From Patescibacteria group bacterium (GTDB lineage: Bacteria > Patescibacteriota > Patescibacteriia > 2-01-FULL-39-33): 64,000 nucleotides of DNA. The stretch is from assembly GCA_041649575.1 (NCBI GenBank), contig JBAZMW010000004.1, positions 21,687 through 85,686 on the forward strand. Direction: 5' to 3'. Shown one piece after another: positions 1 through 64,000 of this stretch. How positions within the stretch are numbered: position 1 is the stretch's first letter; each line of letters starts with the position of its first letter. Made by a program: the position numbers and the translations under genes. Under the pieces are notes generated by a model. It ran no database searches. It saw only the letters and a program-made list of their open reading frames with translations, and was not told the origin of the DNA.

Positions 1-35
1 ATCTTGATCCCAAAAGAGAACGCTACCAAGAGTTT

Positions 36-437
36 TTGCCGATTTATAAAATATTCAGAAACCTAATTTTACTGGTTTTGCTGGTAATCTATCTGGCCGC
101 CAGTTTGTACAACATCGGTTGGCCGATTAATATCGGCGTTGTTGTGGCGCTGGCCATAGGAATATTGATGATCGTCTTGGGCAACTATCTGGGTAAAATA
201 AAAAATAATTGGTTTCTGGGGATACGAACGCCCTGGACATTGTCTTCGGAAAATGTCTGGAACAAAACGCACCGCCTGGGCGGCTGGCTGTTTATGCTGT
301 TTGGGCTGATAATAATTGTCGCGCCCTGGCTGCCAGAGATTGTGGCAACAGTCGCCTTTGTTTTTGGTATTGCCTTGTTGCTTATCGGCACCACGGTCTA
401 TTCTTACTGGCTTTACAGAAAAGAGCGAAAAAAATAA
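36..437 (+). CDS. SdpI/YhfL-family small integral membrane protein
   Basis: 133 aa with four hydrophobic helices and a GIRTPWTLSSENVWNKTHRLGG motif typical of the SdpI/YhfL family. Confidence 0.55.
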   Translation: MPIYKIFRNLILLVLLVIYLAASLYNIGWPINIGVVVALAIGILMIVLGNYLGKIKNNWFLGIRTPWTLSSENVWNKTHRLGGWLFMLFGLIIIVAPWLPEIVATVAFVFGIALLLIGTTVYSYWLYRKERKK

Positions 438-446
438 TAAGCCAAA

Positions 447-480
447 CAAAACCCTTCCAGTTAATTGGAAGGGTTTTGTT
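447..480. terminator. bidirectional intrinsic terminator between convergent genes
   Basis: AAACAAAACCCTTCCAGTTAATTGGAAGGGTTTTGTTTTT is a perfect hairpin flanked by A and T runs on both sides. Confidence 0.6.
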
Positions 481-488
481 TTTAAAAA

Positions 489-1706
489 CTACTTTTTGAC
501 GACTTTAGCAAAAAACTTTTTTCCTTTTTGTAGTAATAGACCGCTGCCTGACACTTCTAGTTGCATTTTTTCATTGCGCACCAATTGATCATCAACCCTT
601 AAAGCGCCCTCTTTGATCAACCGGCGAACTTCGGCATTGCTCTTGGCCAAACCAGCCTTAACAAACAGATCTAAGACACCGATTTTGCCATCTTTGTCTT
701 CGATTAGTACTTCTGATATTTCCAGCGGCTTTTGCTTATCTTGAAAAACCCGCTTGAAATATTGTTCCCCCTCTTTAGCTTTTTTATCGCCCTGATAAAC
801 CCGTACCACCTCGTAAGCCAATTGCATTTTAAGGTCACGGGGATTGACCTTGCCTAAAGACAACTGATCTTTTACTTCTAAAATTGTTTCTTCTGAGACA
901 TCGGTTAAAATCTCAAAGGCCGGAATAATCATCTCATCGGGCCAACTCATTACTTTGCTATACATTTCCTCGGGTGTGTCAATGAGAGGAATCATATTAC
1001 CTTCAGATTTGCCCATTTTTTTACCAGTTGGATCCTCTAGCAATCTAGTGGTCAAAACAAATTTTTCCTTGTTTTTCATTTTTTTCATCAAAGTCCGCCC
1101 AGCCAGCATATTAAACATCTGGTCATTACCACCAATTTCTAAATCTACATCCAGAGCCACGCTATCATAGGCCTGCATTACGGGGTATAAAAATTCATGA
1201 AAATACAAATCCTTTCCCGAATCAATCCTTTCTTTGAACATACTCCTAGCTAAAGTCTGTTGAGCAGTAAAATAAGAAGCGAGCTTAATGGTATCGGCAA
1301 AATTAAGTTTACTCAGCCATTTCGAATTATATTCAAATCTAATTTTTTTAATATCAATCAAATCCTTAATTTGGCCTTTCCACCCTTTTAGATTCTCCAA
1401 AACTTGTTTTTTGGTTAATTGTTTTCTGGTGGCTGATTTATCTGTCGGATCTCCAATCTGGCCGGTAAAATCGCCAAACAAAAAAATCACCTCGTGACCC
1501 AGCTGTAAAAATTGAGCCAATTTGCGAATGGTAATACCATGGCCGATATGTAAAGTAGCTGCCGTCGGATCATAACCACAATAAAGCCTGATTCGTTTTC
1601 CAGACAGCAAGAGTTTTTTAAGCGACTCCTTGTCGGGGTAGATATTTTCTACTCCGCGAGTAAGTAAATGCTCGATTTGTTTTTCGTCGGTGACGATTTT
1701 TGACAT
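489..1706 (-). CDS. tyrS: tyrosyl-tRNA synthetase
   Basis: Class I HIGH motif (TLHIGHGITI), KMSKS-like KMGKSEGN, and a C-terminal S4 domain. Confidence 0.9.
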   Translation of the reverse strand: MSKIVTDEKQIEHLLTRGVENIYPDKESLKKLLLSGKRIRLYCGYDPTAATLHIGHGITIRKLAQFLQLGHEVIFLFGDFTGQIGDPTDKSATRKQLTKKQVLENLKGWKGQIKDLIDIKKIRFEYNSKWLSKLNFADTIKLASYFTAQQTLARSMFKERIDSGKDLYFHEFLYPVMQAYDSVALDVDLEIGGNDQMFNMLAGRTLMKKMKNKEKFVLTTRLLEDPTGKKMGKSEGNMIPLIDTPEEMYSKVMSWPDEMIIPAFEILTDVSEETILEVKDQLSLGKVNPRDLKMQLAYEVVRVYQGDKKAKEGEQYFKRVFQDKQKPLEISEVLIEDKDGKIGVLDLFVKAGLAKSNAEVRRLIKEGALRVDDQLVRNEKMQLEVSGSGLLLQKGKKFFAKVVKK

Positions 1707-2075
1707 CTATTTTAGATTATTGTCTTTTTTGGGACAGAGGATGGCAGTCTCCTCTGTCGGTTAATGGCGGTGACCATTCTCATTTCTTCTTTCGCGAAAA
1801 TTGGGCTGTTTTCTCTTGGCAGTCCGGCCTTGGACTAGATCGCGCAAGGAGCCGGCGATAGGCGAGATGAAAGAAGCGCCTAAGCCGACGACCACGACAG
1901 AAAACGTAAACCTCAAGACCTTGTCGCAGTCTAACTTCAGCCAGATGAGCCCAACCAAGAGCAGCGCTACAACCCAAAGAACGGTTTCTAGCAGGAAGAG
2001 CTTCCGCCATTTCTGCAACGACCTCGCTACTATTCTAAGGTTCATGTGAGAACCCTCCTCTTATCAAATAGTGCT

Positions 2076-7294: not shown

Positions 7295-7336
7295 AAACAA
7301 ACCATTGTCTCTAAACATGGCACAAGGAGAATGGAG

Positions 7337-7579
7337 ATGGAATTTGTTCCTTTCTATATCGACACCGACACCACTAATACCGGAGTTAGAGATTCTGAGC
7401 AATGGGCCCGAGTCGAGGCTGAGGAAAAGAGACTCCTGCCCAACGCCAGGTTATCGGTTACACAGGAGATACGTGGGTTACCAACTTTCGGCTTCGACAA
7501 CTGGAGAGGCTATACGGGGGAAACGCTCGGGGAGTGGGCGCGTAGGAGGGGAATGGACCTTTTCCCCGACCGATTCTAG
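7337..7579 (+). CDS. orphan small protein (80 aa), GC-rich relative to flanks; alternative start at 7331
   Basis: AAGGAG RBS 8 nt upstream of ATG; own promoter and terminator; about 52% GC against roughly 35% in the flanks; no recognisable domain. Confidence 0.45.
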   Translation: MEFVPFYIDTDTTNTGVRDSEQWARVEAEEKRLLPNARLSVTQEIRGLPTFGFDNWRGYTGETLGEWARRRGMDLFPDRF

Positions 7580-7601
7580 AAAGTCAATGACCTTTGATTC
7601 T

Positions 7602-7642
7602 GCCGTGACCGTGCACTTAGCGGTCACGGCGGTTGCTTTTAT
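7602..7642 (+). terminator. intrinsic terminator
   Basis: GCCGTGACCG-tgcacttag-CGGTCACGGC followed by GGTTGCTTTTAT. Confidence 0.65.
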
Positions 7643-9395: not shown

Positions 9396-9680
9396 CTACT
9401 TCCCTAATAAATCACCTGCGCCATTCTCGCGCATGTACGCCTCGGCTCGTGCCGCATTTGGATCGATGCGGGCATAATCATAGACATCGTTGGCGCACCT
9501 ATCCACTTGATCACCAATGAAGGAAAAACGATTGAACCAACCCTTCTCGTCGAATCCTGACGGCCTGATGAACTGCACTACGTCGCCGCTGGGACTACTG
9601 CCAACCGGGCTTAGCAGAATATAGAACCGTCCGGATTCCAAGTCTGCGGCTGTCACTTGTTTTGCTGCTGTCCCCGCCAT
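9396..9680 (-). CDS. hypothetical protein (94 aa), GC-rich
   Basis: AAGGAGG RBS 7 nt upstream; adjacent to and co-oriented with 9693..10028; no recognisable domain. Confidence 0.45.
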   Translation of the reverse strand: MAGTAAKQVTAADLESGRFYILLSPVGSSPSGDVVQFIRPSGFDEKGWFNRFSFIGDQVDRCANDVYDYARIDPNAARAEAYMRENGAGDLLGK

Positions 9681-9692
9681 AGATGATCCTCC

Positions 9693-10028
9693 TTAGCGCT
9701 GACTAACACTGATGTCGAAGAAAGCACGTAGACTCTGTGAAAGCCGTTTTTCCATCTGATCAAGTTGTTTGCCTCTCACGCGACGGCCGAAATCCTTTAA
9801 AGGGACCTGACCTTGGACAAGCTCGCCGGTATCCGAATTGAGCACAAACACATCAATGCCGGCTGGACTCACGAGAGCGCCACTTCTACCGATTACCCTG
9901 ATGATCTGCTGAGATTCTCTCCGATAATAGCAGGCGTCTAGACTCAGCCCTTTATACTTCTTTTTCTTCTCGTCTACCTGCCAATTCATTATCCAAACAA
10001 CTCCGTGTTCGACTTTTCTTCGTCTCAT
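9693..10028 (-). CDS. hypothetical protein (about 111 aa), GC-rich
   Basis: GGAGG RBS upstream of the ATG at 10028 (MRRRKVEH...); forms a two-gene cassette with 9396..9680. Confidence 0.4.
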   Translation of the reverse strand: MRRRKVEHGVVWIMNWQVDEKKKKYKGLSLDACYYRRESQQIIRVIGRSGALVSPAGIDVFVLNSDTGELVQGQVPLKDFGRRVRGKQLDQMEKRLSQSLRAFFDISVSQR

Positions 10029-10085
10029 TGCGACTCCACCTCCCTCCATAAGAGCGGATTAAAAGCCAAAGCCAATGTACAGCTT

Positions 10086-12613: not shown

Positions 12614-12626
12614 TAACAAAACAAAT

Positions 12627-13759: not shown

Positions 13760-13785
13760 GCTCTCGTAGTGAAATGGATATCACG
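13760..13785 (+). repeat. duplicated 5' half of tRNA-Arg (acceptor + D-arm), 25/26 identical to 13812-13837
   Basis: GCTCTCGTAGTGAAATGGATATCACG matches GCCCTCGTAGTGAAATGGATATCACG. Confidence 0.75.
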
Positions 13786-13811
13786 ACAGACTCCTGCCCG
13801 CCACTGCCTAC

Positions 13812-13883
13812 GCCCTCGTAGTGAAATGGATATCACGCTTGGCTTCGGACCAAGAATTTTGGGTTCGAATCCTGACGAGGGCG
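13812..13883 (+). tRNA. tRNA-Arg (anticodon UCG)
   Basis: Acceptor GCCCTCG/CGAGGGC, D-arm GTGA-AATGGATA-TCAC, anticodon arm CTTGG-CTTCGGA-CCAAG, T-arm TTGGG-TTCGAAT-CCTGA. Confidence 0.75.
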
Positions 13884-13916
13884 TTGGCGATGGCAGGCGG
13901 GTCGGATCTGTTATTG

Positions 13917-13940
13917 GGGGTTCGAATCCTGACGAGGGCG
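13917..13940 (+). repeat. duplicated 3' portion of tRNA-Arg (T-arm + acceptor 3' strand)
   Basis: GGGTTCGAATCCTGACGAGGGCGTT is identical to 13861-13885; the intervening spacers (13786-13811 and 13884-13916) are partly reverse-complementary. Confidence 0.7.
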
Positions 13941-14061
13941 TTACCGCGTGGGATGTTAGCTTCCGCCTCGGCTCGCTTTGTTCGCCAAGGCGAGACAGGC
14001 AGCTAGGCTACGGATCAGACTGGAAGAGTATGATAAACAATTTACATAAAACGAGTAATAT

Positions 14062-14172: not shown

Positions 14173-14259
14173 TTAAATGTTTATTTAAAAAATGGTGGGC
14201 CACCGAGAGGTTGTTCCTCGGCAGCCCAGCAATCCTCGTTGCTCGGCGACCACTCACGC

Positions 14260-14391
14260 TCACTTGCGCAAGCAGCCGAGCACTGTCGACGCTACTCCGG
14301 ACAGCAGGGCGACAACCGATGTCGCAATCCACCAGCCGTCGACGTCGTAGTGCGCCGCGCGCGGCTTCGTCAAAACCTTAACATGCCTCAT
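14260..14391 (-). CDS. small hydrophobic peptide (43 aa, MRHVKVLTKPRAAHYDVDGWWIATSVVALLSGVASTVLGCLRK), type I toxin-like candidate
   Basis: Minus-strand promoter TTGACA-17-TAGAGT (14483..14455); GGAGGG RBS 9 nt upstream of ATG; one predicted TM helix; structured about 70-nt 3' UTR and terminator near 14185-14215; region is about 58% GC. Confidence 0.4.
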   Translation of the reverse strand: MRHVKVLTKPRAAHYDVDGWWIATSVVALLSGVASTVLGCLRK

Positions 14392-21679: not shown

Positions 21680-22789
21680 CTACGCCAGGTTGATGTTGAT
21701 CTCGGCTCGTCCCAAAGCGGCCAAGGCCAGACCCAGAACGGTAGCAGCGGCATACGGCCGTTCCAAGAACACTGTGGAGCCGGAACTCATGCCGGCGAGC
21801 GGGTCAACCAGACGCACCTCCCTGCCAAACGCCCGCTGGAAGTACAGCGCGATGTTGCGTAAGCGCACGCCACCGCCTGTCAACAGGAACCGGTCCACCT
21901 CGCCGCCACCAGGCAACGAGCGGAAGTAAGCCAAGGAATCTTTGACTTCCGTGACCAGCCGGCTAAGCACCGGGCCGGTCGCTTCGCCCATCTTACCATC
22001 GCTGCTGACATCGCTGGTTGGAACGAAGCCTTGCTCGAGCTTCATGGCTTCCGCCTCCAAGAAAGGCACACCGAAAGCATTGCCGATCGCCGCGGTAACG
22101 TCGTTGCCGGCTAGGTGCAGCGGCCGCGTATAAGCGAATTGACCGCCCCTCTCTATTACCAGGTTGGTCGTGTTGGCGCCCAGGTCGAGCACGGCGACGC
22201 ACTCATCCGCGTGTCCCAATTCGCCGATATGCCTCAACCAGTCATAGAGCGCCACCGACGCGGGGATGCAGGCTATCGGATTGACCAGTTCTAGAGGCAA
22301 AGGCGCCAGGTGAGCATTCAGCGCATCTCGCTTGATAGCGGCCATCATAACCTGGTATCCCTTTTCCTTGGCGTCCGCCCCGCAGAGGAGCCCGCTCGTG
22401 TCCGTTGTGGGAAAAAGGTGATATCCCAGGCGAATCTGGTCGAGCTTGAATGGTATCTGTTGCTGAAGTTCATACCGCACGATCTTGTCGATTCTCTTCC
22501 TTGGAATCGGTGGCAGGAACCTGGTCCGAGTGAAAACCGAGCGGCCTGGCACTCCAACCACTGCTGGCTGACGCCAGAAGTGAAGACGATTGCCAATGCC
22601 CATTTCAGCCAGTAGTTCTTCCAGCGCCTGCCGCTTCTTGGCCCGCTTGTCGGCTTCATCGGCCAAGGGATCAAGTAGGTACTCCTTGAGGCCGAAACGA
22701 GACAGCCGCAGCATGGTGCCGGCACCACGCTCTAGTTCGCACACACGAACCTCGCTGGTACCGATGTCAACAGCAATCCTTCTAAACAT
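21680..22789 (-). CDS. pilM: type IV pilus assembly protein PilM (actin-like ATPase), orphan and GC-rich (about 58%)
   Basis: VDIGTSEVR N-terminus; PilM-like blocks (VGVPGRSVFTR ... IPFKLDQIRLGY ... VLDLGANTTNL ... LTGGG). Confidence 0.65.
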   Translation of the reverse strand: MFRRIAVDIGTSEVRVCELERGAGTMLRLSRFGLKEYLLDPLADEADKRAKKRQALEELLAEMGIGNRLHFWRQPAVVGVPGRSVFTRTRFLPPIPRKRIDKIVRYELQQQIPFKLDQIRLGYHLFPTTDTSGLLCGADAKEKGYQVMMAAIKRDALNAHLAPLPLELVNPIACIPASVALYDWLRHIGELGHADECVAVLDLGANTTNLVIERGGQFAYTRPLHLAGNDVTAAIGNAFGVPFLEAEAMKLEQGFVPTSDVSSDGKMGEATGPVLSRLVTEVKDSLAYFRSLPGGGEVDRFLLTGGGVRLRNIALYFQRAFGREVRLVDPLAGMSSGSTVFLERPYAAATVLGLALAALGRAEININLA

Positions 22790-24485: not shown

Positions 24486-24633
24486 TACGCGTCGCTCCCT
24501 GCCTACCGGTAGGCAGGCGCTCCTTGCCCTGGGTTGGCAGCAGACCTGCCACCGGCAGGTCTGCTGACGTTCGACCTCATCACTTCGTGATTTGTCTCAC
24601 TGCCAACCCGTTCGATTCCCGTTAATTTCTGTT
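24486..24633 (-). repeat. 148-bp GC-rich hairpin-rich insert between tRNA-Gly and a duplicated copy of its 3' end
   Basis: 17-bp direct repeats AAGCGGGTAACGGGAAT at 24469-24485 and 24634-24650; insert holds palindromes CCTGCCTACCGGTAGGCAGG, CAGCAGACCTGCC-acc-GGCAGGTCTGCTG and GGGTTGGCAG/CTGCCAACCC. Confidence 0.65.
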
Positions 24634-24634
24634 A

Positions 24635-24880: not shown

Positions 24881-24896
24881 CCCTGTTAAATAATTG

Positions 24897-27098: not shown

Positions 27099-28577
<1,479 letters not shown>

Positions 28578-28869
28578 AAAAAATTTGCAACTAGATTACG
28601 GCCAGTTGCCAACCGTATGAAACATTGCTTCGCTAGAAAGCGAAGATGCTTTGTTCAAAGAAAAATAACTTGGGCTTACGCTTTTTGTCACTTTTTAGTT
28701 GTCAAATTGCCTTTTTCCTCCGCTTTCAAGCGGAAAGAAAAAACAGAGGGATCCGATTTGGCGAACTCTCGTTTCAGGCGAGAATTCTGTCAGATACCAC
28801 TGTTTTCCCTCAAAATCTAAATTTTAGGAATTTTTTAAGAATGTTTTGTGCTTATTAGTCTGCCCTATT

Positions 28870-30638: not shown

Positions 30639-31064
30639 TTAGGCGCTGGGAGTGTCTGCTGAAGCGGCTTCTGCCGGCGCGGCTGTTTCGGCTTTCTCTT
30701 GAGCCTGCTTGGCGGCTTCGGCTTCGGCTTTCTTGGCGGCGTCGATAGTGGCTTTCTCTTGAGCCTTTTGAGCAGCTAGGGCCGCCTGTTTTTTCTTGCC
30801 GGGCTGCGACTTGGAGGCTCTGACTTTCTTGTCTTTGATAATCCCTTGGCTGACCAGTAGATTGTGAACCGTCGAGGTAGCTTGAGCTCCTTGCTTTAGC
30901 CAATACAAAATTCTGTCATTTTTTATCTGACTTACTTTGGTCTTAGGGTTATAAGAACCCAGGTTTTCTAAAAATTTACCCCAGGGATCACGGGTTTTTT
31001 CGGTGACAATCAGCCGATAAAGCGGCTGTTTTTTCTTGCCAACGCGAGATAGTCTGATTGATAA
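30639..31064 (-). CDS. rpsP: 30S ribosomal protein S16 with Ala/Lys-rich C-terminal extension
   Basis: MLSIRLSRVGKKKQPLYRLIV is the S16 signature. Confidence 0.85.
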   Translation of the reverse strand, partial: LSIRLSRVGKKKQPLYRLIVTEKTRDPWGKFLENLGSYNPKTKVSQIKNDRILYWLKQGAQATSTVHNLLVSQGIIKDKKVRASKSQPGKKKQAALAAQKAQEKATIDAAKKAEAEAAKQAQEKAETAAPAEAASADTPSA

Positions 31065-32363: not shown

Positions 32364-32520
32364 TACTAACAAATTATTTAAAGTTAAATAAAAACTTCCT
32401 CATCTGTCCGGCCAAGCTTCTTGAATGAGATAGAAACTATCTCAAACAAGAAGAAGAGAGAGTTTGGCCGGACGAATGAAGAAGCTTTAAAAGTATTCCT
32501 CAAAACTTGTAAAAAAGATT

Positions 32521-32569
32521 TGCAAGTTTAGTTGGAAGGAGAAGCTGACAAACCACATCAGCTTCTCCC
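32521..32569. repeat. island repeat, short copy 3
   Basis: TGCAAGTTTAGTTGGAAGGAGAAGCTGA-caaaccaca-TCAGCTTCTCC: 11-bp perfect hairpin plus the CCAGTTGGAAGGAG-like core. Confidence 0.6.
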
Positions 32570-32593
32570 AAAACCATCTACCGATCAAGGCCG

Positions 32594-33451
32594 CTAGGCC
32601 TTGGCGATGACGGCGCGAGTTGCCTCAACCGCCGCCACGACGTCGGCCAGCATCATGCGCTGACCGCGGGGACTGCCGGCGATGCCCGCGTGCCCGCCGG
32701 CCGCCTCGCCCCAAAGCCCCTGCACGATCTCTCGTGCCGAGACTCCGGGGATCGGGTCGGCGATAGACACTGTCACCGCACCGGTGACTGTGTTGAAGGC
32801 GACAACAGCTTTCGCCAAGTCGCCTTCCGGGTCGACGTACAGATGGCTGACAAACGTGTCCGCCACCCGCACTGCCACCCCGCCGCCAGCCTCGACGAAC
32901 GATTGCGCATTCAGCGCGACCTCCGCCGAGCGGAACGCCTCGCCCGCCGCGAGAAGTTCCGGGTCGTCAGCGCAAATGCGCTCAACGACCCTGACGGCCT
33001 CCATCACCTGCTCGGTGACTTCGGCCGCGCTGCCGTCGCGCGGGGGCAGGCAGCGGTGACCGTTGCTCCACGCCCAGAAAGCGTAGAGCCGGACGATGTC
33101 GGCTGGCTCGGCGCCGGCTTGGCCTAGCTTGTGCGGACCGTTGAGGTCCACAAAAGCTGCCAGGAGCCAGAATCCCGGCGTCTCGGGCTTGCGACCGAGA
33201 ACGGCCGCACAGCCGCCGACGGAATCGAGATCAAGGTGGGAAAGTCCCACCGCCTCGACTTCACCAGCCGCGCCGTTGTCGGCGAGGCAGGGGGCGGGGT
33301 TGCCCGCCCGCGGCCCGTGATGGGCCAGGGTTGCGACGGACCCGGCGACACACTCGTCGCCGAATTCCGCCTCAACCGAAGCGGTCAGGCCGAAGGGGGC
33401 GAGGACGGCGGCCAATGCGGCCGCATGGTTTGAAATAAAAAACTTCGTCAT
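32594..33451 (-). CDS. hypothetical protein C (285 aa), about 68% GC; faint DHH/DHHA1-like motifs (HLDLDSVGG ... AAGGHAGIAGSP)
   Basis: RBS AGGAGA 7 nt upstream of ATG; longest frame in the region; the motif resemblance is weak and unverified. Confidence 0.45.
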   Translation of the reverse strand: MTKFFISNHAAALAAVLAPFGLTASVEAEFGDECVAGSVATLAHHGPRAGNPAPCLADNGAAGEVEAVGLSHLDLDSVGGCAAVLGRKPETPGFWLLAAFVDLNGPHKLGQAGAEPADIVRLYAFWAWSNGHRCLPPRDGSAAEVTEQVMEAVRVVERICADDPELLAAGEAFRSAEVALNAQSFVEAGGGVAVRVADTFVSHLYVDPEGDLAKAVVAFNTVTGAVTVSIADPIPGVSAREIVQGLWGEAAGGHAGIAGSPRGQRMMLADVVAAVEATRAVIAKA

Positions 33452-33560: not shown

Positions 33561-33724
33561 GCAGAGTTTTTTCCTCAAGCCCCGCAAACTCACATTGTTT
33601 GCGAAGCCAGTTGGAAGGAGGAGACAGAAAAACCACTCTGACTCCTCCGGATAACCTTGTTTGCGTTTGTAACGAGGCCGCCGCCTCCGATTGTTTGACC
33701 TCTAACAATCGTAAAGGAGTGTTC
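33561..33724. repeat. island repeat, long copy 1 (164 nt, multi-hairpin)
   Basis: About 96% identical to 34422-34585; contains the TGCGAAGCCAGTTGGAAGGAGGAG core plus hairpins GGAGGAGACAGA/TCTGACTCCTCC, GCAAAC/GTTTGC and CGATTGTT/AACAATCG. Confidence 0.75.
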
Positions 33725-34421: not shown

Positions 34422-34585
34422 GCAGAGTTTTTTCCTCAGGCCCCGCAAACTCACATTGTTTGCGAAGCCAGTTGGAAGGAGGAGACAGAAAAACCACTCT
34501 GACTCCTCCAAATAACCTTGTTTGCGTTTGTAATGAGGCCGCCGCCTCCGACTGTTTGACCTCTAACAATCGTAAAGGAGTGTTC
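34422..34585. repeat. island repeat, long copy 2
   Basis: Near-identical to 33561-33724. Confidence 0.75.
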
Positions 34586-35206: not shown

Positions 35207-35404
35207 AACTTATCTCCTTTCACAGAGATCTCGGCCTGCCACAGGCCGTGTCCGCGAGGATCGACAATCCTCTTTTTTCGTCTCATGACGGCGGACAAAT
35301 TACTGCCAGTACCGCACAATGCGGCGCTGGTTTTTTCTATGCTTACCAGCCGCTGACCCAAGTCAGCTGCTAGGAATTTCCTCAGACTTCACGGACAACA
35401 GGCC

Positions 35405-35450
35405 TGCGAAGTCAGTTGGAAGGAGAAGCCGAGACTCGCCCGGCTTCTCC
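35405..35450. repeat. island repeat, short copy 4
   Basis: TGCGAAGTCAGTTGGAAGGAGAAGCCG-agactcgcc-CGGCTTCTCC. Confidence 0.6.
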
Positions 35451-35547
35451 AAAATCAATCATGAATAAATATTTAATTTATTTATCTCTTAATTTTTTAT
35501 TCAGTTGTCAAAATACTTCTTGTCTTAGCTTCTCACCATATGCTCCC

Positions 35548-35624
35548 GTAGCCCGAAGCGCCTTGTTTCTTATAACTCGGGATTGCCGCGGTCGCCCGCC
35601 TCTGGCGGACTCCCTCGCAATGAC
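35548..35624. mobile_element. intergenic copy of the MITE-like element (degenerate 5' end)
   Basis: CGGGATTGCCGCGGTCGCCCGCCTCTGGCGGACTCCCTCGCAATGACA matches the 3' halves of the cca and polA copies. Confidence 0.6.
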
Positions 35625-36349
35625 AGTTACGAAAGGCGTTTTACTAATCAAGACGGTTCTTCCAACCAACGGGTGGTTAATCTGTTGATTGGAAATGTCT
35701 GTCTCGAATAGATAGACATTTGGCAAAGGAGTTGCGATCCGAGAGGCTGACGCTAACAAGCATGCGGCGCCAGACCTCGAGCCGGACAGCTATCCAACAA
35801 CCGTCACTCTAACGGTGGTTTGTTGCCCTATGAGTGATATTTAGCGAGGCGAGGATTTCTCTCTTCGATAGTCCTGGCTTCGCCAAACATTTTAAGGTGC
35901 TTGAGTTTAAAGTGCTGTTCCCAACTCTCTCTTTGGGAAGGCCGGGTTCAGAAGTGACAAGCTCTTCCGAGGCCCGGCTCTCCCGCCCGATCTAGAAAGT
36001 TTCAAAAAACTCTCAACCGGGCGGAGAGAGCTTCGAGGTGCTTCCTTTTTCTATTGGTCGCCGCCCTCTCTCCTTGGCGGCTTCCAAATCCAGTAAGGAA
36101 GCAATTGACTTTTTATTTAATGTTCTCTGGTCGGCTATCTTTTTCCTGTTTTCAGCTTACAAACCCATTATATCATATATAACAAATATTGTCAAGCATA
36201 TATGACTAAAAATTTAGAATTTATTATTATTTTCCTAAATTTATTAAAATATATTATCTAATTTATAATACTATTTTGTCACAAAAATTTGACATTTAAA
36301 TATTATGGGTGTATAATGAAAGTATCTATTTAATAAATCAACAAAGAAT

Positions 36350-37138
36350 ATGTACAAACAGTCATTAACTCAGGCCGGGCTGACCGAAGAAATGGCCCAA
36401 ATTTATGAGGTTTTGCTGAAAAACGGGCCACAAAATGCTGGAAAATTAGCCAAAAAAACCGGCTTAAAACGCGGTTTGGTTTACAAAACACTGGATCGCC
36501 TGTTAGAAAAAGGGTTGCTAGAAAAAAACGAGGCCGACAAAAAGGTGTCCCTATTTTCCGCCAATCATCCGCTAAAATTGCAAGAAATAGTAGAAACCAA
36601 GCAGCAAAGGGCAAAAAACGCCGCTTTGGCCCTGGATGGTGTTTTGCCAGCCCTGGTTTCCGACTACAACCTGCTAAGCGGCAAGCCAGAAGTTCTCTAT
36701 TTCGAAGGCGAGGAGGGTCTAAAAAAAATTGCTTTCGATTCCCTGTCGGCCAAAACGGAAATACTGCAATATATAGACAACGAGGCAGCCAATAAATATT
36801 GGCCAAATCTTAATGAGGAATATGTAAAAAAAAGAAAGGGCCTGGGCATTAAAAAACGCATGATTACCATTGACAGCGAGTTTATCAAAAAAAATAAAGC
36901 CAAGTACGATCGCAGTATTACCGATATTCATCTGATAGACGGAGAGCGCTACCCCTTTGCCACCTCCATGCAGATTTATGACAATAAAGTAAGCCATGTC
37001 ACTTTGAGCCAGAATAAAAAAATCGGCTTTCTCATCGAAGATGCCGAGATTGCTGGAATGCATCGGACTATTTTTGAGTATATGTGGGAAAAAACCAGTC
37101 CACTTTTTGAGCCTCAAACCGCCGCGGCCAATGATTGA
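36350..37138 (+). CDS. TrmB-family transcriptional regulator
   Basis: N-terminal wHTH (AGLTEEMAQIYEVLLKNGPQNAGKLAKKTGLKRGLVYKTLDRLLEKGLL) and a TrmB-type C-terminal domain. Confidence 0.65.
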   Translation: MYKQSLTQAGLTEEMAQIYEVLLKNGPQNAGKLAKKTGLKRGLVYKTLDRLLEKGLLEKNEADKKVSLFSANHPLKLQEIVETKQQRAKNAALALDGVLPALVSDYNLLSGKPEVLYFEGEEGLKKIAFDSLSAKTEILQYIDNEAANKYWPNLNEEYVKKRKGLGIKKRMITIDSEFIKKNKAKYDRSITDIHLIDGERYPFATSMQIYDNKVSHVTLSQNKKIGFLIEDAEIAGMHRTIFEYMWEKTSPLFEPQTAAAND

Positions 37139-39414
37139 GGCTGGGCGGCCAAATCGTTTCTCTCAATCACAACAAATTTTTCGCCGGCAATTTCCGTCTC
37201 GCCCACTTCCTTGAAACCGAACCGACTTTTATAAAAATCCAGCAGTTCCGGCCGGCGACCGTAAACAACCGCCTCAATAATATTTTCCCGGGCCGCCGAG
37301 TCAATGACTTCTTTGATCATGGCATTGCCGATTTTAAAACCCTGGGCTTCGGGACGAACATTAAAGGAGGCGGCATAGAGCCGGTTTTGGCCGCGCGGCT
37401 CCAGACGCAGAAAACAAATAATTTTTCTGTCATATCTAAGAATGGTAAAAACCGATTGAGACTTGGCAGAACCTTCTTCTGGGGAAACCGCCTCTTCAAA
37501 ATCACTAGAAACTTCTCTAAGCAGCTCTTCGGGGTAATCCTCTCTGTTGGCCAAAAAAATTCTAATCATCTCCTCTTTTTCCGAGGGCAAAAGATCGGCT
37601 GGCTGCCTGGTCTCCATACTAACCTTGGCCGCCTCTTTGAAATCAATCTCTTCTCCGGCTTCCAATAAAGCCCTGAAAGAAGCGGCGAACAGCAAAACGT
37701 CCGCTTTAATACTATCCATCTGGTCCAGAATTTCTGATGCCTCAAAACCGCGAGCTGCCTTCAGACAAAAATCATTTAAAACGTCCCTACCTCGAGACAA
37801 CAGGCTTGAGCGCACCTTATCTAAAACATCACCAGGAATATTTCTGCCAAACTCTTTGGCCACCAGCTCTATTGTCTCATCGGCTGTCTCGATGATTTCG
37901 ACATACTTGGCAAAAATTTTTTCCGCCACGGCTGGCGGCAACCTTTCGCCTAACTCCAGAATCTTGTTACCCATTTCTTGACCATATTCACAGGAAAGAA
38001 AAGTCTTAAATCCAGTCAAACCAAACCGAGAGGCAAACCGCCTAACTGGCTCCATTTTAACAGAGGACATGGTCTTAATGAATTGCAAAAAATGAAACTG
38101 CTCCCTCAGGGACAGGTTTGATAAATCAATATTTAGCTCTTGGCCTATTTTTTCACGCATGGATTTTTTTGACATCCACTTAAAATCCACCAATGCCTCT
38201 TCCCGCTGCCTACTCTCATCTTTGGAGCGACTGGCGGGTATAAAAACATCGGTGACAGACAATTTCCTGGAAAAAAAAGACTCTAACGACCTAAAAAGTT
38301 GGTTACGCTCGTACAGTAAGGCTGAGTCAGGACTAAAAAATACTTCTGTTTCGCCATTGGCTATCGCTAAATCAATTAAGTGCTGGGGAGGACGAATTTT
38401 ATCTTCAATAGAATCTATCTCTTGATTTAAACGGCAAATTTCATCAAAGTCTGACTCATCAGCGACATAAAGACCATGACGAGATTCCCAAGCGTAAATT
38501 CTGCCACTTAAAATAAAAGGTCGACGATTATTGTGCCTTGACTCTAGTAGTTCACCTTTTTCAAAATGGTTATATATTTCCTGAGCTCGCATTTTTAAAA
38601 AATAACTGCCCTCGTTTTTTTCTATGGCTTCCTTTAAAACCATTATAACTTTAGAGCCAGCTTTCTCGGAAAAAGAATAGTCCTGAGAAACCTCACATAG
38701 CCTCCTAATAAACTCTAAAAAAACAGCGGTACGAGAAAAATTCTTACTATTGGAAAAATCTAAATTATCAACTAAAACCTGATCATAAAGTTCGCTAAAA
38801 AAAGAATAGGCGTAGTTTAAACCATGCAGAACCTCGCTCTCCAAATCCGCGTCAGTGTCTGGCCGACAAATTAAATCCACTAAGCCTTCTATAAAAATGT
38901 CTGGGCGTATTGTCTGGGGATCCTGAAAAAGATACTGAAAAAATTTTCTACTAGCACTCGGGCTCTGGTGGTGAGTTTTAATAACAGCTTTAAAGGTCTT
39001 GTCAGCTATAGATTCATCTTTGGAGCCGTCCCTTTTAAAATCTCCGTGAAGCTGAAGCGCGCAATTCAAGTCCATCGCCAGAAGATCTTGCTCTGCCTCT
39101 GGCCTATCCTCGATTAAGGATAAACCCCTACTAATTATCGCCTCTACTATCTCTGGTGGCAATAAGTGTCTCTGACTATTTTGCTCTAATTCTGGCAGTA
39201 GCTTCTTAAAAAAATAGTCAAATGGCAGGGAATTAATTAAAACCAGTGCCTGATTTTTTTTAGTCTGATCTACAGGGGTTGTTTCTTGTCTATCCGCTAT
39301 AGATAGCAACAAACCCCTGCCCACCAAATAGTCAAACAAATTTTCTTCAAATTTTGACTCTTTTTGATCAGAACTTGCTTCAGCTTTATTTGCTATTTTT
39401 TTTTCGCCTTCCAT
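37114..39414 (-). CDS. large hypothetical protein (766 aa) with C-terminal GNAT acetyltransferase domain
   Basis: C-terminal about 150 aa show GNAT motifs (IIEAVVYG ... FYKSRFGFKEVGE); lies 4 bp downstream of smc on the same strand. Confidence 0.55.
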   Translation of the reverse strand: MEGEKKIANKAEASSDQKESKFEENLFDYLVGRGLLLSIADRQETTPVDQTKKNQALVLINSLPFDYFFKKLLPELEQNSQRHLLPPEIVEAIISRGLSLIEDRPEAEQDLLAMDLNCALQLHGDFKRDGSKDESIADKTFKAVIKTHHQSPSASRKFFQYLFQDPQTIRPDIFIEGLVDLICRPDTDADLESEVLHGLNYAYSFFSELYDQVLVDNLDFSNSKNFSRTAVFLEFIRRLCEVSQDYSFSEKAGSKVIMVLKEAIEKNEGSYFLKMRAQEIYNHFEKGELLESRHNNRRPFILSGRIYAWESRHGLYVADESDFDEICRLNQEIDSIEDKIRPPQHLIDLAIANGETEVFFSPDSALLYERNQLFRSLESFFSRKLSVTDVFIPASRSKDESRQREEALVDFKWMSKKSMREKIGQELNIDLSNLSLREQFHFLQFIKTMSSVKMEPVRRFASRFGLTGFKTFLSCEYGQEMGNKILELGERLPPAVAEKIFAKYVEIIETADETIELVAKEFGRNIPGDVLDKVRSSLLSRGRDVLNDFCLKAARGFEASEILDQMDSIKADVLLFAASFRALLEAGEEIDFKEAAKVSMETRQPADLLPSEKEEMIRIFLANREDYPEELLREVSSDFEEAVSPEEGSAKSQSVFTILRYDRKIICFLRLEPRGQNRLYAASFNVRPEAQGFKIGNAMIKEVIDSAARENIIEAVVYGRRPELLDFYKSRFGFKEVGETEIAGEKFVVIERNDLAAQPQSLAAAV

Positions 39415-42395: not shown

Positions 42396-43235
42396 ATGGC
42401 AATATCCGCCAACAATGGCGCCAACTCAATGCCAGCGCCGCTACTAGAAAGGCAGGAAGCGGTACTTAAGTTCTTTCCCAACAGAAAGCCGTCATCCAGA
42501 CTTGATAGCAGCCCGTCTATCTCTGGACACGAAGGCATCGTGGTCTTTCCTGACAAGGAGCTTGGGCGAGCGATCGCTTCACAATGCTTGGTTGGCAAGA
42601 GTCTGCAGATCATGCTACAAGTCTACAAAACCGCAAGAGGGACCCACGTCTGGACCGCCAGCAAACACCCCCGAAAGAATCTGGTACTTCAAACCGCCGA
42701 CCTTGGCGGAAAAGAAGTGGCGGTCATCATCGACGGGCAAAACCTGCTGGGGTCCATGAGACGACTCGGGCTGAAGTCAATGGTTGACACTATTAGCAGG
42801 GTTCTGCGACCATTCAGGCCGAAGCTTATCAATCTTTACCTGGGAGCCAACGACCTTATACAACTACTTCCCGCTGACAGGACAGCACTCCATTCCGGCG
42901 CAAGGATTGGTGAAACGCAGTTGACACTCTTCACTGTGGAGACTCGGCGCGTGGCCGACGATAACGGTACCAGAATGAAGAACAATATCGACGGCAGTAT
43001 ACTGCCGATCCTGGGAGAGCTGACAAACGACAGATCTTGCGAAGGCCTAATACTCTTTACGGGCGACAAGGATTTCAGCACCGGCGTGGAGCTTTGGATG
43101 GGTATTGGCGAACAATCACACCGCCCGGGCAGACCGGCCATTGTGGTCTCGGCCGATCCCATGCTTAGCACCGAACTGCGAGAGGCCATGAACCACCCCA
43201 GAGGGAACCTGATCTTTTTGGAAGACCTGTGTTGA
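42396..43235 (+). CDS. NYN/LabA-like PIN-domain protein
   Basis: VAVIIDGQNL and ILFTGDKDF blocks typical of NYN domains; RBS GGAGGAGGG; about 54% GC. Confidence 0.55.
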   Translation: MAISANNGANSMPAPLLERQEAVLKFFPNRKPSSRLDSSPSISGHEGIVVFPDKELGRAIASQCLVGKSLQIMLQVYKTARGTHVWTASKHPRKNLVLQTADLGGKEVAVIIDGQNLLGSMRRLGLKSMVDTISRVLRPFRPKLINLYLGANDLIQLLPADRTALHSGARIGETQLTLFTVETRRVADDNGTRMKNNIDGSILPILGELTNDRSCEGLILFTGDKDFSTGVELWMGIGEQSHRPGRPAIVVSADPMLSTELREAMNHPRGNLIFLEDLC

Positions 43236-62193: not shown

Positions 62194-62921
62194 AAATTTT
62201 AATTGTCTTTCCGGTTTATAACGAGCAGCTGATTGTGGAGAAGAGTGTCAGACAAACGCTGGATTTTTGTCGAGGAAATTTTTGCTCCGATCGGTTCAAA
62301 ATCGTGGTGGCCGACAACAATTCAACCGACAAGACGGCGGAAGTGGTTAAGGGGCTGGTCGGGGAAACAGCCGAACTGGAGTATTTTTTCATTCCGGAGA
62401 AAGGCAAGGGTCTGGCTTGGCGTAGCGTTTTTTTGCAAGAGACGGCCGACATTTATATTTTTATGGATGTTGATCTGGCGGTGGCTCTCGAGGATCTTAA
62501 ATCTCTAGTGGCAGGAATAAAATCGGGCTATGCTTTGGTAATCGGTTCGAGATTTTTGGCAGCGGCCAAGGTGGAGCGATCTTTTTTGAGAAGCTTGGTT
62601 TCTTTCACTTATCGTTTTTTGGTGCGGCTGATGCTGAAAAGTAAAATTAGCGATTTTCCTTGCGGCTTCAAAGCCTTAAACCAAACAATCAAAGAAAAGG
62701 TTTTGCCTCTGACGCAGGACAAACTGTTTTTTTTGGACACGGAGCTGGTGGTGCTGGCCGAAAAAATGGGTTACCGGATCAAAGAGGTGCCGGTTAACTG
62801 GTCGCAGTTTCGCGATCTGGCCAGGAAGAGCACAGTTAATATTATGGAAACCGCTGTCGAGTATTTTGTAAAAATCTGGCGGTTAAGAAAAAGGATAAAC
62901 AATTTATCAGAACGTCGCTGA
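62190..62921 (+). CDS. family 2 glycosyltransferase (polyprenol-phosphate sugar transferase, DPM1-like)
   Basis: GT-A motifs VFPVYNE ... DNNSTDKT ... DVD (DxD). Confidence 0.75.
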   Translation: MKILIVFPVYNEQLIVEKSVRQTLDFCRGNFCSDRFKIVVADNNSTDKTAEVVKGLVGETAELEYFFIPEKGKGLAWRSVFLQETADIYIFMDVDLAVALEDLKSLVAGIKSGYALVIGSRFLAAAKVERSFLRSLVSFTYRFLVRLMLKSKISDFPCGFKALNQTIKEKVLPLTQDKLFFLDTELVVLAEKMGYRIKEVPVNWSQFRDLARKSTVNIMETAVEYFVKIWRLRKRINNLSERR

Positions 62922-63037
62922 AGTCAGCGGCGTTTTTTGGCTATTGACATTTTGGGTTATTTTTGGAATAATGGAGCGTTACCCTGGAGGTAATGAACAT
63001 TGGTCAACAAATCCCCTTTTCGGGGTATGGGAGAGCG

Positions 63038-63625
63038 ATGATGAACAGGAACAGGCAAGCGGTATTTCTGGTGATTTTGGCGGTTGCGGCGGCTGGGTGT
63101 TCGACGACGGTCAGTCCCAACGGCTATCGTAGGGACTTTCTGACTTTCGGCGGCGAGCGGTATCAGAAGTACCAAGACCCGCGGCTGGAGGCGAATTCCG
63201 GAGTCGTGGCTTACAGTGGCATTAACGGCCCAAGCGGTCCATACGCGGCCGCGTTGGCAGTCGGCAGTATCTCCGACCCGGCGGCGCGGCGTGATGCGGC
63301 CGAGACCATAAAGAGCGTGGCCGAGAATGAAGGAGCCTATGGCGGCGGACGAGCGGCCGGTGGCTACCGCGGCTATCACGGCGGGTTTAGACAGTTGGGC
63401 TATCTGCTCAACAACAGCAACGAAACGCGTTTTGTCAGTGTTGACGGCAGCCGGCCGATCGAGGTGCTGCCTTGGCGCAAGTTGTTTCTGGAGCTGCTGC
63501 CCGGCGACCACCAGCTGGTGGTGACAAGCCGGAGCGGCGCTTTCATCAAGGAACGGTCTTTCGTCGTGAATGAGGAAAGGCGCGATGCGCCCGATCACCT
63601 CCACGATTGGATGCAGAACATTTAG
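63038..63625 (+). CDS. putative lipoprotein, GC-rich (about 60%)
   Basis: Promoter TTGACA-17-AATAAT at 62945-62975; signal peptide with lipobox VAAAGC; opposite-strand ORF 62957..63652 judged spurious. Confidence 0.5.
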   Translation: MMNRNRQAVFLVILAVAAAGCSTTVSPNGYRRDFLTFGGERYQKYQDPRLEANSGVVAYSGINGPSGPYAAALAVGSISDPAARRDAAETIKSVAENEGAYGGGRAAGGYRGYHGGFRQLGYLLNNSNETRFVSVDGSRPIEVLPWRKLFLELLPGDHQLVVTSRSGAFIKERSFVVNEERRDAPDHLHDWMQNI

Positions 63626-63654
63626 GGGGAGTGTAAACAGGCACAAGAACAAAA

Positions 63655-63702
63655 GGGACGCGAGATCTCGGAAATCGCGCCCCTTGAAATTTTTATTACA
63701 GA
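63655..63702. terminator. bidirectional intrinsic terminator between convergent genes
   Basis: GGGACGCGAgatctcggaaaTCGCGCCCC followed by TTGAAATTTTTATT. Confidence 0.5.
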
Positions 63703-63707
63703 CGAGA

Positions 63708-64000
63708 TTAAGGCGTACCTGTTCCAGTAGAGGCTCTGTTTAGCTGATCGACGATAAAATAAGAGATGGAGTAGGAAGCTAAGACGATCACTAGTCCAAT
63801 GGTAGCGGCGATAATAATATCTTTGGCTTTTTTGACTTTTCCATCGTCGCCGCTAGCGATCATCCAGATGAAGCCGGCATAGATAATAAGCATGATGAAG
63901 ATGACGCCGAGAATTCCCAAGGCTACGCCGATTATTCTGCCGACAGCGATAGGCAGAGCGTTTTCACTGGCGTCGCCGCCCAGGCCGGAATTTTCTTTGA
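63708..64000 (-). CDS. small two-TM membrane protein, pilin-like (TrbC/VirB2-like?), 5' end outside window
   Basis: Open frame continues upstream of the listed TTG start to the window edge (...NSGLGGDASENALPIAVGRIIGVALGILGVIFIM...); two hydrophobic helices. Confidence 0.4.
   Translation of the reverse strand, partial: KENSGLGGDASENALPIAVGRIIGVALGILGVIFIMLIIYAGFIWMIASGDDGKVKKAKDIIIAATIGLVIVLASYSISYFIVDQLNRASTGTGTP

Follow-up and report, generated by a model that had tools for sequence, protein, structure and literature searches.

The question raised by this 64,000-nucleotide (nt) stretch of a Patescibacteria group bacterium (assembly GCA_041649575.1, contig JBAZMW010000004.1, positions 21,687 to 85,686; hereafter the window) is why so many short GC-rich patches stand in a backbone of much lower GC content. 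A reading of the letters by themselves (the sequence-only reading) had left two answers: that the lineage takes up and tolerates foreign high-GC DNA, or that the contig is a metagenomic chimera. The patches have several causes, which comprise stable RNAs and tRNA fragments, an alanine-rich protein tail, acquired genes and a cassette block. The best explanation, in which we place good though not full confidence, is a correctly assembled chromosome with acquired GC-rich genes, of which the largest block, at 31.2-36.2 kb, is a cassette array linked to a regulator and punctuated by a repeated structured RNA motif. Direct observation covers composition and anatomy, the lack of the block at the syntenic site in relatives, recurrence in other lineages, motif covariation, the DHH fold of one cassette protein and incongruent similarities; how the regulator is linked to the array, what the motif does, which way transfer went and where the reservoir lies are what we infer.

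The window has a GC content of 44.6% overall, and its backbone one of 42.1% once the listed patches and the RNA genes are masked, in agreement with the upper figure of the roughly 38-42% given by the sequence-only reading; the patches lie above this level. In 200-nt windows the standard deviation (SD) of GC is 0.082, against a binomial expectation of 0.035 (2.3-fold), and in twelve loci from relatives it is 0.048-0.072. Whole-patch GC is 0.50-0.60 (Table 1); the range of 52-68% given earlier holds for the stronger patches only, several others being modest at 50-54%. At the gene level, GC at third codon positions (GC3) is 0.53-0.78 in the GC-rich open reading frames (ORFs) versus 0.27-0.56 in nearly all other ORFs, and first and second positions (GC1 and GC2) are likewise higher. 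The encoded proteins hold more Gly, Ala, Arg and Pro (GARP fraction 0.27-0.40, versus 0.15-0.26 in most backbone genes) and less Phe, Tyr, Met, Ile, Asn and Lys (FYMINK fraction 0.13-0.24, versus 0.26-0.40 in most backbone genes). The GC-normalised dinucleotide signature exceeds the 95th percentile of equal-sized backbone segments for the island formed by the cassette block, for its DHH-like gene and its 320-amino-acid (aa) gene (p320), for pilM, for the NYN-domain gene and for 9396-10049; it is borderline for 25842-26893, the lipoprotein gene and 23780-24400. Because this signature is atypical after normalisation, the heterogeneity is real and goes beyond an effect of GC. The mosaic composition described earlier is therefore borne out by window-level SD, gene-level GC3 and dinucleotide signature.

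The window is a segment of a Patescibacteria chromosome (candidate phyla radiation, CPR; Parcubacteria-type) that spans dnaA, oriC and dnaN. Its backbone genes encode TyrRS, ValRS, the CCA-adding enzyme, NusB, RNase III, a PilT-like ATPase, HU, YmdB, RNase Y, ClpP, RbfA, initiation factor IF-2, TrmD, ribosomal protein S16, SMC, PolA, the DNA polymerase III delta subunit, YidC, the RNase P protein, DnaA, DnaN, a class A penicillin-binding protein, RuvC and YebC. Relatives of the SMC protein, at 39-64% identity, come mostly from metagenome-assembled genomes (MAGs) labelled Patescibacteria, Parcubacteria, Buchananbacteria, Falkowbacteria or Saccharibacteria, and some records bear other labels. 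The genes dnaA and dnaN (51005-53810) enclose a gap of 17.6% GC (52397-52685), with yidC and rnpA just upstream. The minimum of the cumulative GC skew falls near this AT-rich gap, and the window therefore spans the replication origin, for which the gap is the likely position.

Could GC-rich fragments of other organisms have been joined into a Patescibacteria contig during metagenomic assembly? The composition contrast is strong, the nearest relatives of pilM belong to another, high-GC phylum, and the source is a short-read MEGAHIT-style contig. However, the patches are all short, at 0.15-4.3 kb, and each is flanked left and right by one and the same housekeeping backbone, so that two false junctions per patch would be needed. 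Logan contigs, built by an independent assembler from run SRR8542065, are 100% identical to the window over 29976-33608, a match that crosses the 31.2-kb boundary between island and rpsP as well as one internal AT-rich gap; a second Logan contig from the same run, also 100% identical, spans pilM and the start of infB. The protein is found, too, on 133-135 kb contigs in ENA (ERZ27247363 k141_497544) and in NCBI records. The pilM product is just 49% identical to Hydrogenedentota proteins, and the gene is truncated in frame, with a stop codon at its end and a terminator-like site after it. The same architecture, a GC-rich DHH-like gene in a low-GC Patescibacteria contig, occurs in more than 10 unrelated JGI, ENA and NCBI assemblies, and AT-rich consensus promoters stand directly before two of the GC-rich units. 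With two junctions reproduced by the Logan assembler and the pattern recurring in unrelated assemblies, chimerism, one of the two original answers, is very unlikely.

The cassette block lies in the gap between SMC and rpsP, which measures 8.3 kb in the window versus 67-1196 nt in five relatives (L003, L004, L008, L009 and L014; comparison loci carry L numbers); in the closest relatives this interval contains neither the block nor the adjoining regulator and 766-aa protein, which extend the segment to 39.4 kb. Other inserts are found at the same place, namely a 253-aa ORF in L003 and a 1125-aa GH9 protein in L010. The GC content of the block is 0.58 (genes 0.56-0.68; GC3 0.63-0.78) versus 0.42 for the backbone, and its dinucleotide delta* is 0.127, where null segments average 0.060 with 0.108 as their 95th percentile; none of up to 300 sampled null segments attained this value. 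A horizontally acquired insertion is the interpretation supported by these sequence comparisons. Gene calls for about 10 kb to either side of the array include no integrase, the block edges bear no direct repeat of more than 9 nt, and no transposase marks the block.

The array is headed by a promoter that agrees with the sigma-70-type consensus at all 12 positions, and a divergent promoter of the same quality precedes the gene for a winged-helix regulator of the TrmB family; TTGACA/TATAAT promoters are found at the equivalent place in L020 and L023. Downstream of the array promoter lies a structured leader of about 700 nt, which has no ORF of at least 60 aa on the minus strand and for which Rfam gives nothing at E<=1. 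L020, L023 and L072 likewise have ORF-poor leaders, 1-3.6 kb long, and that of L072 shares two short conserved blocks with the window. Three cassette ORFs follow, the third of them DHH-like, and then p320, which has a promoter of its own. The family of the 320-aa protein comprises 354 representative clusters, and the AlphaFold2 (AF2) model of the protein has a predicted local distance difference test score (pLDDT) of 93; no Pfam or NCBIfam model and no Foldseek match to a PDB fold was obtained for it, and its family was not found in IMG/VR.

The helix-turn-helix (HTH) of the regulator is similar to the HTHs of Csa3/CasR. A homolog of the regulator, likewise divergent, lies upstream of a DHH-like gene in L072, L082, L113, L020 and L023, and weak homologs (25-30% identity) of the 766-aa protein stand beside TrmB in L113, L082, L072 and L020. 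This platform, a divergent TrmB gene plus a DHH-like gene, is present in six lineages, with promoter and long leader where these were read (L020, L023 and L072). The nearest module relative of the window, L072, has in common with it the TrmB start and promoter, the two leader blocks and the stretch from the motif through the DHH-like gene; the remaining ORFs between motif copies differ between the two, with GC of 0.40-0.63. As read from the sequence, the anatomy would fit variable cassettes under one upstream promoter. About 85% of the island ORFs in other loci are without a family. Since the recognisable cargo there includes Csx3, bpMoxR-VWA, a cREC domain, a DEAH-type helicase and a viperin-like radical SAM protein, functions in nucleotide signalling and RNA conflict are suggested. 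In one lineage (L023 4673-5593, and L024), a XerC/D-type tyrosine recombinase gene lies 4 nt upstream of that for the large platform protein, with which it may be co-transcribed.

The element that punctuates the array is about 88 nt long and folds into a hairpin, P1, followed by a helix, P2 (UUCC/GGAA), that encloses a second hairpin, P3; its conserved sequences are CUCCUUCCAACU and UGAGGAA. One copy precedes each of the three array ORFs and a fourth follows the last (copies A to D in Table 1). Copies B and C, each with about 100 nt upstream, form a direct repeat of 193 nt (33540-33732 and 34401-34593, 94% identity), which indicates either that the array has recently undergone an internal duplication or that the conserved element extends beyond the motif. 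From within copy C through the 5' untranslated region and the DHH-like ORF, the sequence is 70% identical to L072 as a single unit. Covariance models find 4 copies in the window, 4 in L072, 2 in L089 and 6 in L100, and more in L023, L094 and L026; outside the window the copies lie between or next to ORFs, at a spacing of 0.5-1.1 kb in L072 and L100. Two further matches of model R1 in the window, at 48921 and 22964, were rejected as spurious, one a terminator-like hairpin and the other the 3' part of tRNA-Cys.

In 95.5% of cells the predicted partners can pair, versus 46-56% when the partners are slid, and all 28 of 28 pairs show compensatory double changes; these figures come from 16 matches, two of them spurious, in an alignment that was fitted to the model and so favours structure. 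About 9% of the motif cells are G-U pairs, for which reason the sense strand is favoured. The motif has no match in Rfam, where the region 30500-36500 gave four chance-level microRNA or small RNA matches (E 0.5-0.8), and no copy was detected in the high-GC contigs and the SMC-anchored loci of relatives that were searched, or in IMG/VR; an exact-pattern scan of IMG/VR gave nine loci, of which the covariance model confirmed none (0/9). The motif shows strong covariation and appears to be a previously undescribed structured RNA. Because it keeps a fixed orientation with the genes, occupies intercistronic positions and contains G-U pairs, we favour a role at the RNA level, which may be processing or stabilisation, or antitermination.

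Intercistronic RNA elements of this general kind are familiar from phages, as in the RNase III sites between the early genes of phage T7 and the put antiterminator RNAs of HK022. With these the motif has in common that structured elements of 70-90 nt are repeated between the cistrons of one transcript; its two adjacent hairpins resemble HK022 put, and its extended imperfect helix resembles the T7 RNase III sites. It differs in that sequence and Rfam reveal no relation, that its role is predicted, and that it stands in a chromosomal array of Patescibacteria.

The third cassette encodes a 285-aa protein with more than 569 homologs at 50-71% identity, and every homolog with an organism name is from Patescibacteria. 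Neither Pfam, NCBIfam, PHROG nor PADLOC gave a match for the protein, its homologs likewise have no Pfam domain, and a sequence search of the PDB returned nothing significant (best E 0.29, unrelated lectins). The invariant residues include E27, E29, H44, H45, S71, H72, D74, D76, D102, H107 and G252-G253-H254. The AF2 model has a pLDDT of 96, and Foldseek matches it to RecJ-like, GdpP and NrnA structures (8ioo, 5xsp and 8iu7) with probabilities of 0.99-1.0. On the basis of this predicted structure and these matches, the protein is assigned as a remote, phosphoesterase-like member of the DHH/DHHA1 fold. With the DHH/DHHA1 phosphoesterases (NrnA, GdpP, RecJ-like proteins and the SAM-AMP-degrading NrN) it has in common the two-domain fold, the invariant His and Asp residues and GGH...G-x-A-G; however, it is shorter, has AHH in place of DHH and matches neither Pfam DHH nor DHHA1, and TM-scores are only about 0.3, perhaps reflecting another relative orientation of the two domains.

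In L020, L023 and L026, the homologs have 64-68% GC and lie in a GC-rich stretch of 4-9 kb within a backbone of 41-46% GC; in L020 and L023 the DHH homolog heads this stretch. The cargo there includes a DEAD/HA2 helicase at one of these loci and Csx3, bpMoxR and VWA at another. Across 80 metagenome loci, DHH copies in a low-GC context (flanks 0.34-0.48) have a GC3 of 0.75-0.95. Copies also occur in homogeneous contigs of 57-68% GC, and a few in low-GC contigs with a GC3 of 0.14-0.30, which means that the protein itself does not need high GC.

The history of the DHH-like gene appears to be partly separate from that of the regulator beside it. Pairwise identities of TrmB and DHH, computed over full ORFs for six lineages with L094 left out as identical in sequence to L113, are uncorrelated (rho = -0.06). 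L023 and L082 have TrmB proteins of 20% identity and backbones of about 45% and 34% GC, respectively, while the identity of their DHH-like genes is 88% at the protein level and 85% at the DNA level, a similarity confined to the ORF. Between most of the lineages compared, 4-fold degenerate sites are at or near saturation. In a crude neighbour-joining tree the copies in CPR context form one large group, inside which fall a few high-GC contigs, one of them from IMG/VR. Relatives of the DHH-like protein are present on 43 IMG/VR contigs (31-54% identity, 28-67% GC), the closest of which have 59-67% GC. High-GC contigs with the DHH gene carry HNH, RNA ligase, endonuclease V-type, NUDIX, SNF2 and adenylosuccinate-synthetase-like genes; Pfam searches of the neighbours of the DHH homologs on two jumbo-phage-like contigs were uninformative. 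The adenylosuccinate-synthetase-like protein (E = 4.9e-67) is on one of L129, L140, L142, L146, L106 and L098, and its family includes PurZ of phages with 2-aminoadenine genomes. High-GC phage-like contigs are a possible reservoir of the DHH cassette. The persistence of high GC could be due to fast turnover from a GC-rich reservoir, to allelic replacement with biased conversion, or to selection.

Taken as a mechanism, the favoured explanation would run as follows. The stable RNA genes, tRNA fragments and Ala-rich tail are GC-rich for ordinary reasons, and single GC-rich genes would have arrived horizontally, most clearly the truncated PilM of Hydrogenedentota type. In the block, the TrmB regulator would control one polycistronic transcript that runs from the consensus promoter through the 700-nt leader into the GC-rich genes, and the repeated motif would serve as an intercistronic processing or stabilising element, much as RNase III sites do among the early genes of phage T7. 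Cassette content would turn over by horizontal exchange among Patescibacteria and high-GC phage-like elements, and the patches would stand out because this turnover outpaces the erasure of their GC signature by the AT-biased mutation of the host.

Several points weigh against this explanation. The similarity between L023 and L082, confined to the ORF, fits allelic replacement by homologous recombination equally well, and cassettes circulating solely among AT-rich Patescibacteria should ameliorate. The proposed GC-rich reservoir is drawn from contigs of uncertain host and from the crude tree, and the RNA-level role of the motif is a prediction. The borders of the block show neither an integrase or transposase nor flanking direct repeats. 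For the small GC-rich ORFs without relatives (ORFans), composition is the one sign of foreign origin, and three such patches are borderline in dinucleotide signature. Finally, the assembly support covers two junctions, and both Logan contigs possibly derive from the sample of the window assembly itself.

How cassettes might enter the array is a separate matter, and its layout invites comparison with integrons, in which the motif would be a single-stranded DNA recombination site and promoterless cassettes would be captured behind the TrmB-linked promoter by some recombinase. A divergent gene by a strong promoter, an array of short, mostly single-ORF units with structured repeats 0.5-1.1 kb apart, cassettes that differ from relative to relative on a conserved platform, a cassette GC that varies inside one array, DHH similarity incongruent with the platform, and a tyrosine recombinase two genes upstream in L023 would all agree with this. 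However, the array has no IntI, the L023 recombinase has an ordinary XerC/D-type domain architecture, and the divergent gene encodes a winged-HTH regulator. The motif lacks the paired RYYYAAC/GTTRRRY cores of attC (UUCCAAC is present, with no GTTRRRY partner), has two hairpins where attC has one imperfect hairpin, and contains G-U pairs that favour a fold of the sense strand, when attC acts through its bottom strand; in addition, the segment shared by L023 and L082 ends at the ORF borders and not at motif copies. GTTAGGC after two cassette ORFs was considered as an integron core and discarded, there being no inverse core and no IntI with it. We regard integron-like capture as unlikely. An integrase-independent cassette system, in which the platform captures and swaps GC-rich single-gene cassettes bounded by the motif, the pool is shared with high-GC phage-like elements, the motif is exchange point and RNA punctuation at once, and the cargo is a mobile toolkit for nucleotide signalling and RNA conflict, is a speculative proposal to which we attach limited credence.

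Two other explanations concern the origin of the GC-rich genes. If these were long-term residents, with high GC kept in place by selection (for example on mRNA stability or structure) or by GC-biased gene conversion, one would understand that most CPR copies are near-saturated at 4-fold sites yet have a GC3 of 0.75-0.95, that the platform association is conserved across deep lineages, that the leader and intercistronic regions are strongly structured, and that the NYN gene is syntenic in relatives. Members of the family with a GC3 of 0.14-0.30 show, however, that function does not need high GC; the amino-acid composition is of GC type and the dinucleotide signature atypical; the block is absent from the syntenic site of the closest relatives; and TrmB and DHH similarities are incongruent. 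Maintenance in place is accordingly a doubtful account of the data. Alternatively, the block could be the remains of a prophage or of a satellite of a high-GC phage, given the presence of the DHH-like family in the 43 IMG/VR contigs, some of them 150-297 kb long and the closest GC-rich, and of HNH, RNA ligase, endonuclease V-type and NUDIX genes on the high-GC contigs with DHH. Yet PHROG matched 0/10 of the GC-rich ORFs of the window, no capsid, terminase, integrase or attachment (att) repeats are present, and it is the DHH gene alone that viral contigs have in common with the block, the RNA motif being absent there; we judge this origin improbable. A correctly assembled chromosome with acquired genes and a regulator-linked cassette array continues to be our preferred reading.

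Among single genes, the clearest acquisition is that of pilM. Its product matches Pfam PilM_2 at 6e-29 (101.5 bits versus a cut-off of 27), scores 108 bits with NCBIfam TIGR01175, under the cut-off of 133, and has as its best NCBIfam model the fused Amuc_1101-type PilM, at model positions 8-359 of 608. Twelve homologs were found, the nearest of which are 43-51% identical (about 49%) and 620-645 aa long; one 90%-identity cluster among these is named Candidatus Hydrogenedentota PilM, and the two nearest-homolog contigs that were read have a uniform 59-62% GC. A Parcubacteria PilM is only 22% identical to the window protein. The likeness to the fused Amuc_1101-type proteins (about 610-645 aa; Hydrogenedentota and related) thus extends over the PilM ATPase-like domain at a similar GC, but the window gene ends at 369 aa, past the PilM domain and without the C-terminal half. 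A terminator-like site follows at 21643-21617, and no homolog of pilN, pilO, pilP or pilQ was identified among the neighbours (tRNA-Cys, infB). The earlier description of an orphan, GC-rich pilM with its own terminator is upheld, as is that of an AT-rich pilT, the PilT-like gene (12537-13661) having a GC of 0.435. Our reading is that pilM is probably a truncated inter-phylum xenolog from an unsampled donor.

Table 1. Coordinates of the patches and features of the window (GC as a fraction).
Feature	Coordinates	Strand	GC	Remarks
Patch	7300-7640		0.52	
Patch	9396-10028		0.50	
94- and 118-aa ORFs	9396..10049	-	elevated	no family; atypical dinucleotide signature
tRNA-Arg locus	13760..13941	+	0.56	complete tRNA-Arg(UCG) nested in an outer tRNA-like sequence
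Patch	14185-14450		0.59	
43-aa hydrophobic peptide ORF	14260..14391	-	0.61	accounts for patch 14185-14450
PilM-like gene (pilM), truncated	21680..22789	-	0.59	369 aa
Patch	23780-24400		0.54	
Insert of about 130 nt	24486..24633	-	0.59	flanked by tRNA-Gly and a duplicate of its 3' end
Two GC-rich ORFans, 171 and 130 aa	25842..26893	-	0.52	between 16S rRNA gene and tRNA-Ile
16S rRNA gene	27101..28583	-	0.51	
Ribosomal protein S16 C-terminal tail	30639..30800	-	0.59	core 0.43; Ala/Lys/Glu-rich, repetitive
Patch	31170-35460		0.58	500-nt peaks 0.63-0.67
320-aa gene (p320)	31289..32251	-	0.60	GC3 0.75; own 12/12 promoter 32363-32335, terminator-like site 31216-31198
Motif copy D	32490..32575	-		19 nt past DHH stop; long hairpin after
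Cassette 3, 285-aa DHH-like ORF	32594..33451	-	0.68	GC3 0.78
Motif copy C	33565..33655	-		5' of DHH cassette
Cassette ORF 2, 190 aa	33763..34335	-	about 0.56	from ATG with Shine-Dalgarno; no PHROG or NCBIfam family
Motif copy B	34426..34516	-		within 193-nt repeat 94% identical to that of copy C
Cassette ORF 1, 162 aa	34718..35206	-	0.58	no Pfam, PHROG or NCBIfam family
Motif copy A	35372..35457	-		covariance model R1, 83 bits
Structured leader, about 700 nt (708)	35458..36165	-		ORF-poor; minimum free energy (MFE) -247 kcal/mol, z = -10 versus shuffles
Array promoter, sigma-70-type	36167..36195	-		consensus TTGACA-17-TATAAT, 12/12
Regulator promoter, divergent	36289-36317	+		matching 12/12 consensus
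TrmB-family winged-helix regulator	36350..37138	+	0.43	divergent from array; Pfam TrmB 7.9e-12
766-aa protein, C-terminal GNAT domain	37114..39414	-	0.42	adjoins regulator; Pfam Acetyltransf_1 2.7e-07
NYN-domain gene	42396..43235	+	0.54	Pfam NYN 5.5e-05
Lipoprotein gene	62993..63625	+	0.60	stand-alone; lipobox AAAGC

Part of the mosaic is made of stable RNA genes and their fragments. The tRNA genes of the window have 0.49-0.60 GC. Thermophily as the cause of GC-rich RNA genes was ruled out because the GC of the 16S rRNA gene is just 51%. No 23S rRNA gene is in the window, and the 16S gene has none following it; in the region 25602-28583 (minus strand), the 16S gene has a terminator-like hairpin after it, and the 171- and 130-aa ORFs stand before tRNA-Ile. 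At the tRNA-Arg locus, an outer tRNA-like sequence (13760-13941) has a long helix in place of its anticodon arm, and tRNA-Arg(UCG) (13811-13884) forms the tip of this helix. The outer sequence also has acceptor, D and T arms, together with a loop-like stretch CUCCUGC (CCU = Arg), and the same nesting appears when the fold is predicted (MFE -86 kcal/mol, z = -5.5). Within 24486-24706 and 24860-25010 (minus strand), the insert after tRNA-Gly opens with the T arm in inverted copy and closes with a repeat of the tRNA-Gly 3' end, and extra tRNA-Pro-like 5' and 3' fragments flank tRNA-Pro(TGG). At 25230-25601 (minus strand), tRNA-Ile(GAT) is followed by a GIY-YIG-type ORF with an internal stop (MHCLYILQSERDGSYYIGYSSDLEKRIRQHN...) and then by a second tRNA-Ile 3' end, an arrangement suggestive of a homing-endonuclease-like gene that inserted long ago and duplicated its target.

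Among the patches listed earlier were some 'in-frame repeats'. Tandem Repeats Finder detects no GC-rich tandem array, and the best match, which for this reason is probably what was meant, is the C-terminal tail of ribosomal protein S16; the elevated GC is thus confirmed and a tandem array is not.

The remaining patches hold small ORFans, and for most of those that stand alone a promoter-like or terminator-like site belonging to the unit itself can be recognised. The 171- and 130-aa ORFs have no Pfam or PHROG match and no homolog in any relative locus compared. The 43-aa ORF (MRHVKVLTKPRAAHYDVDGWWIATSVVALLSGVASTVLGCLRK) has a basic N-terminus and a hydrophobic C-terminus; inspection by eye shows a promoter-like TTGACA-17-TAGAGT ahead of it and, past its end, a GC-rich hairpin that leads into a T run, and the putative peptide resembles a small membrane peptide or a type I toxin. 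The lipoprotein gene, with promoter-like and terminator-like sequences on either side (by eye), has no match in Pfam, PHROG, PADLOC or NCBIfam. A basic low-complexity ORF (MARKGKGDRSGDDGK...) at 23929-24298 (minus strand) switches frame at a run of nine G (24165-24173), for which phase variation, decay to a pseudogene and a sequencing error in the homopolymer are all candidate explanations. PADLOC matched 0/8 of the GC-rich window ORFs and gave weak matches solely for the regulator and the 766-aa protein, both of backbone GC. No homologs were found for the small ORFans (171, 130, 94, 118 and 43 aa, and the lipoprotein), for which no dedicated homology search was made; composition is therefore what points to their foreign origin.

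The NYN-domain gene is a case apart. Homologs stand at the same position between polA and SMC in L004 (38% identity) and L010 (27%), where polA and SMC are 62-65% identical to those of the window, and in relatives the NYN interval is just 0-5 GC points over the mean of its own locus. This indicates a fast-evolving resident or a replaced allele.

The other original answer, that the lineage takes up foreign high-GC DNA, therefore holds for some of the patches. It is backed by the large block, which is absent from the syntenic site and in which DHH and regulator similarities are incongruent, and by pilM with its Hydrogenedentota relatives. It does not extend to the stable RNA genes, the tRNA fragments and the Ala-rich tail, which explain part of the mosaic, nor to the NYN gene, which is syntenic in some relatives; and the pool of the DHH-like cassette circulates in Patescibacteria and phage-like elements, not in an unrelated high-GC phylum.

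That Patescibacteria carry many acquired GC-rich genes is already known in broad terms. A survey of groundwater MAGs of the group, based on automated predictors, describes abundant genomic islands and horizontal transfer, mostly between Patescibacteria and with occasional donors from other phyla (PMC12455944). The islands summarised there are like those of the window in being compositionally atypical inserts in streamlined genomes, with cargo often related to defence or of unknown function. In that paper, searched for a few terms, no report was found of a recurrent TrmB-linked platform, a motif-punctuated array or a persistently GC-rich DHH-like gene, and a non-exhaustive search of the literature on integrons or attC and Patescibacteria found none of these either. 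Novelty seems to lie in the locus as a defined unit, in which promoter and leader are linked to a regulator and precede variable genes punctuated by a conserved structured motif.

For the window, these results mean that the contig is trustworthy, that its other findings need no discount for chimerism, and that its GC-rich ORFs can be treated as accessory genes. For the group, they point to a recurrent, defined locus of accessory-gene turnover in Patescibacteria, with an undescribed RNA motif of strong covariation and an unnamed but widespread family of DHH fold shared with large phages. They also pose a puzzle, that of a GC3 of 0.75-0.95 maintained within flanks of 34-48% GC despite near-saturated synonymous divergence, which bears on the speed and the partners of gene exchange in these ultra-small symbionts.

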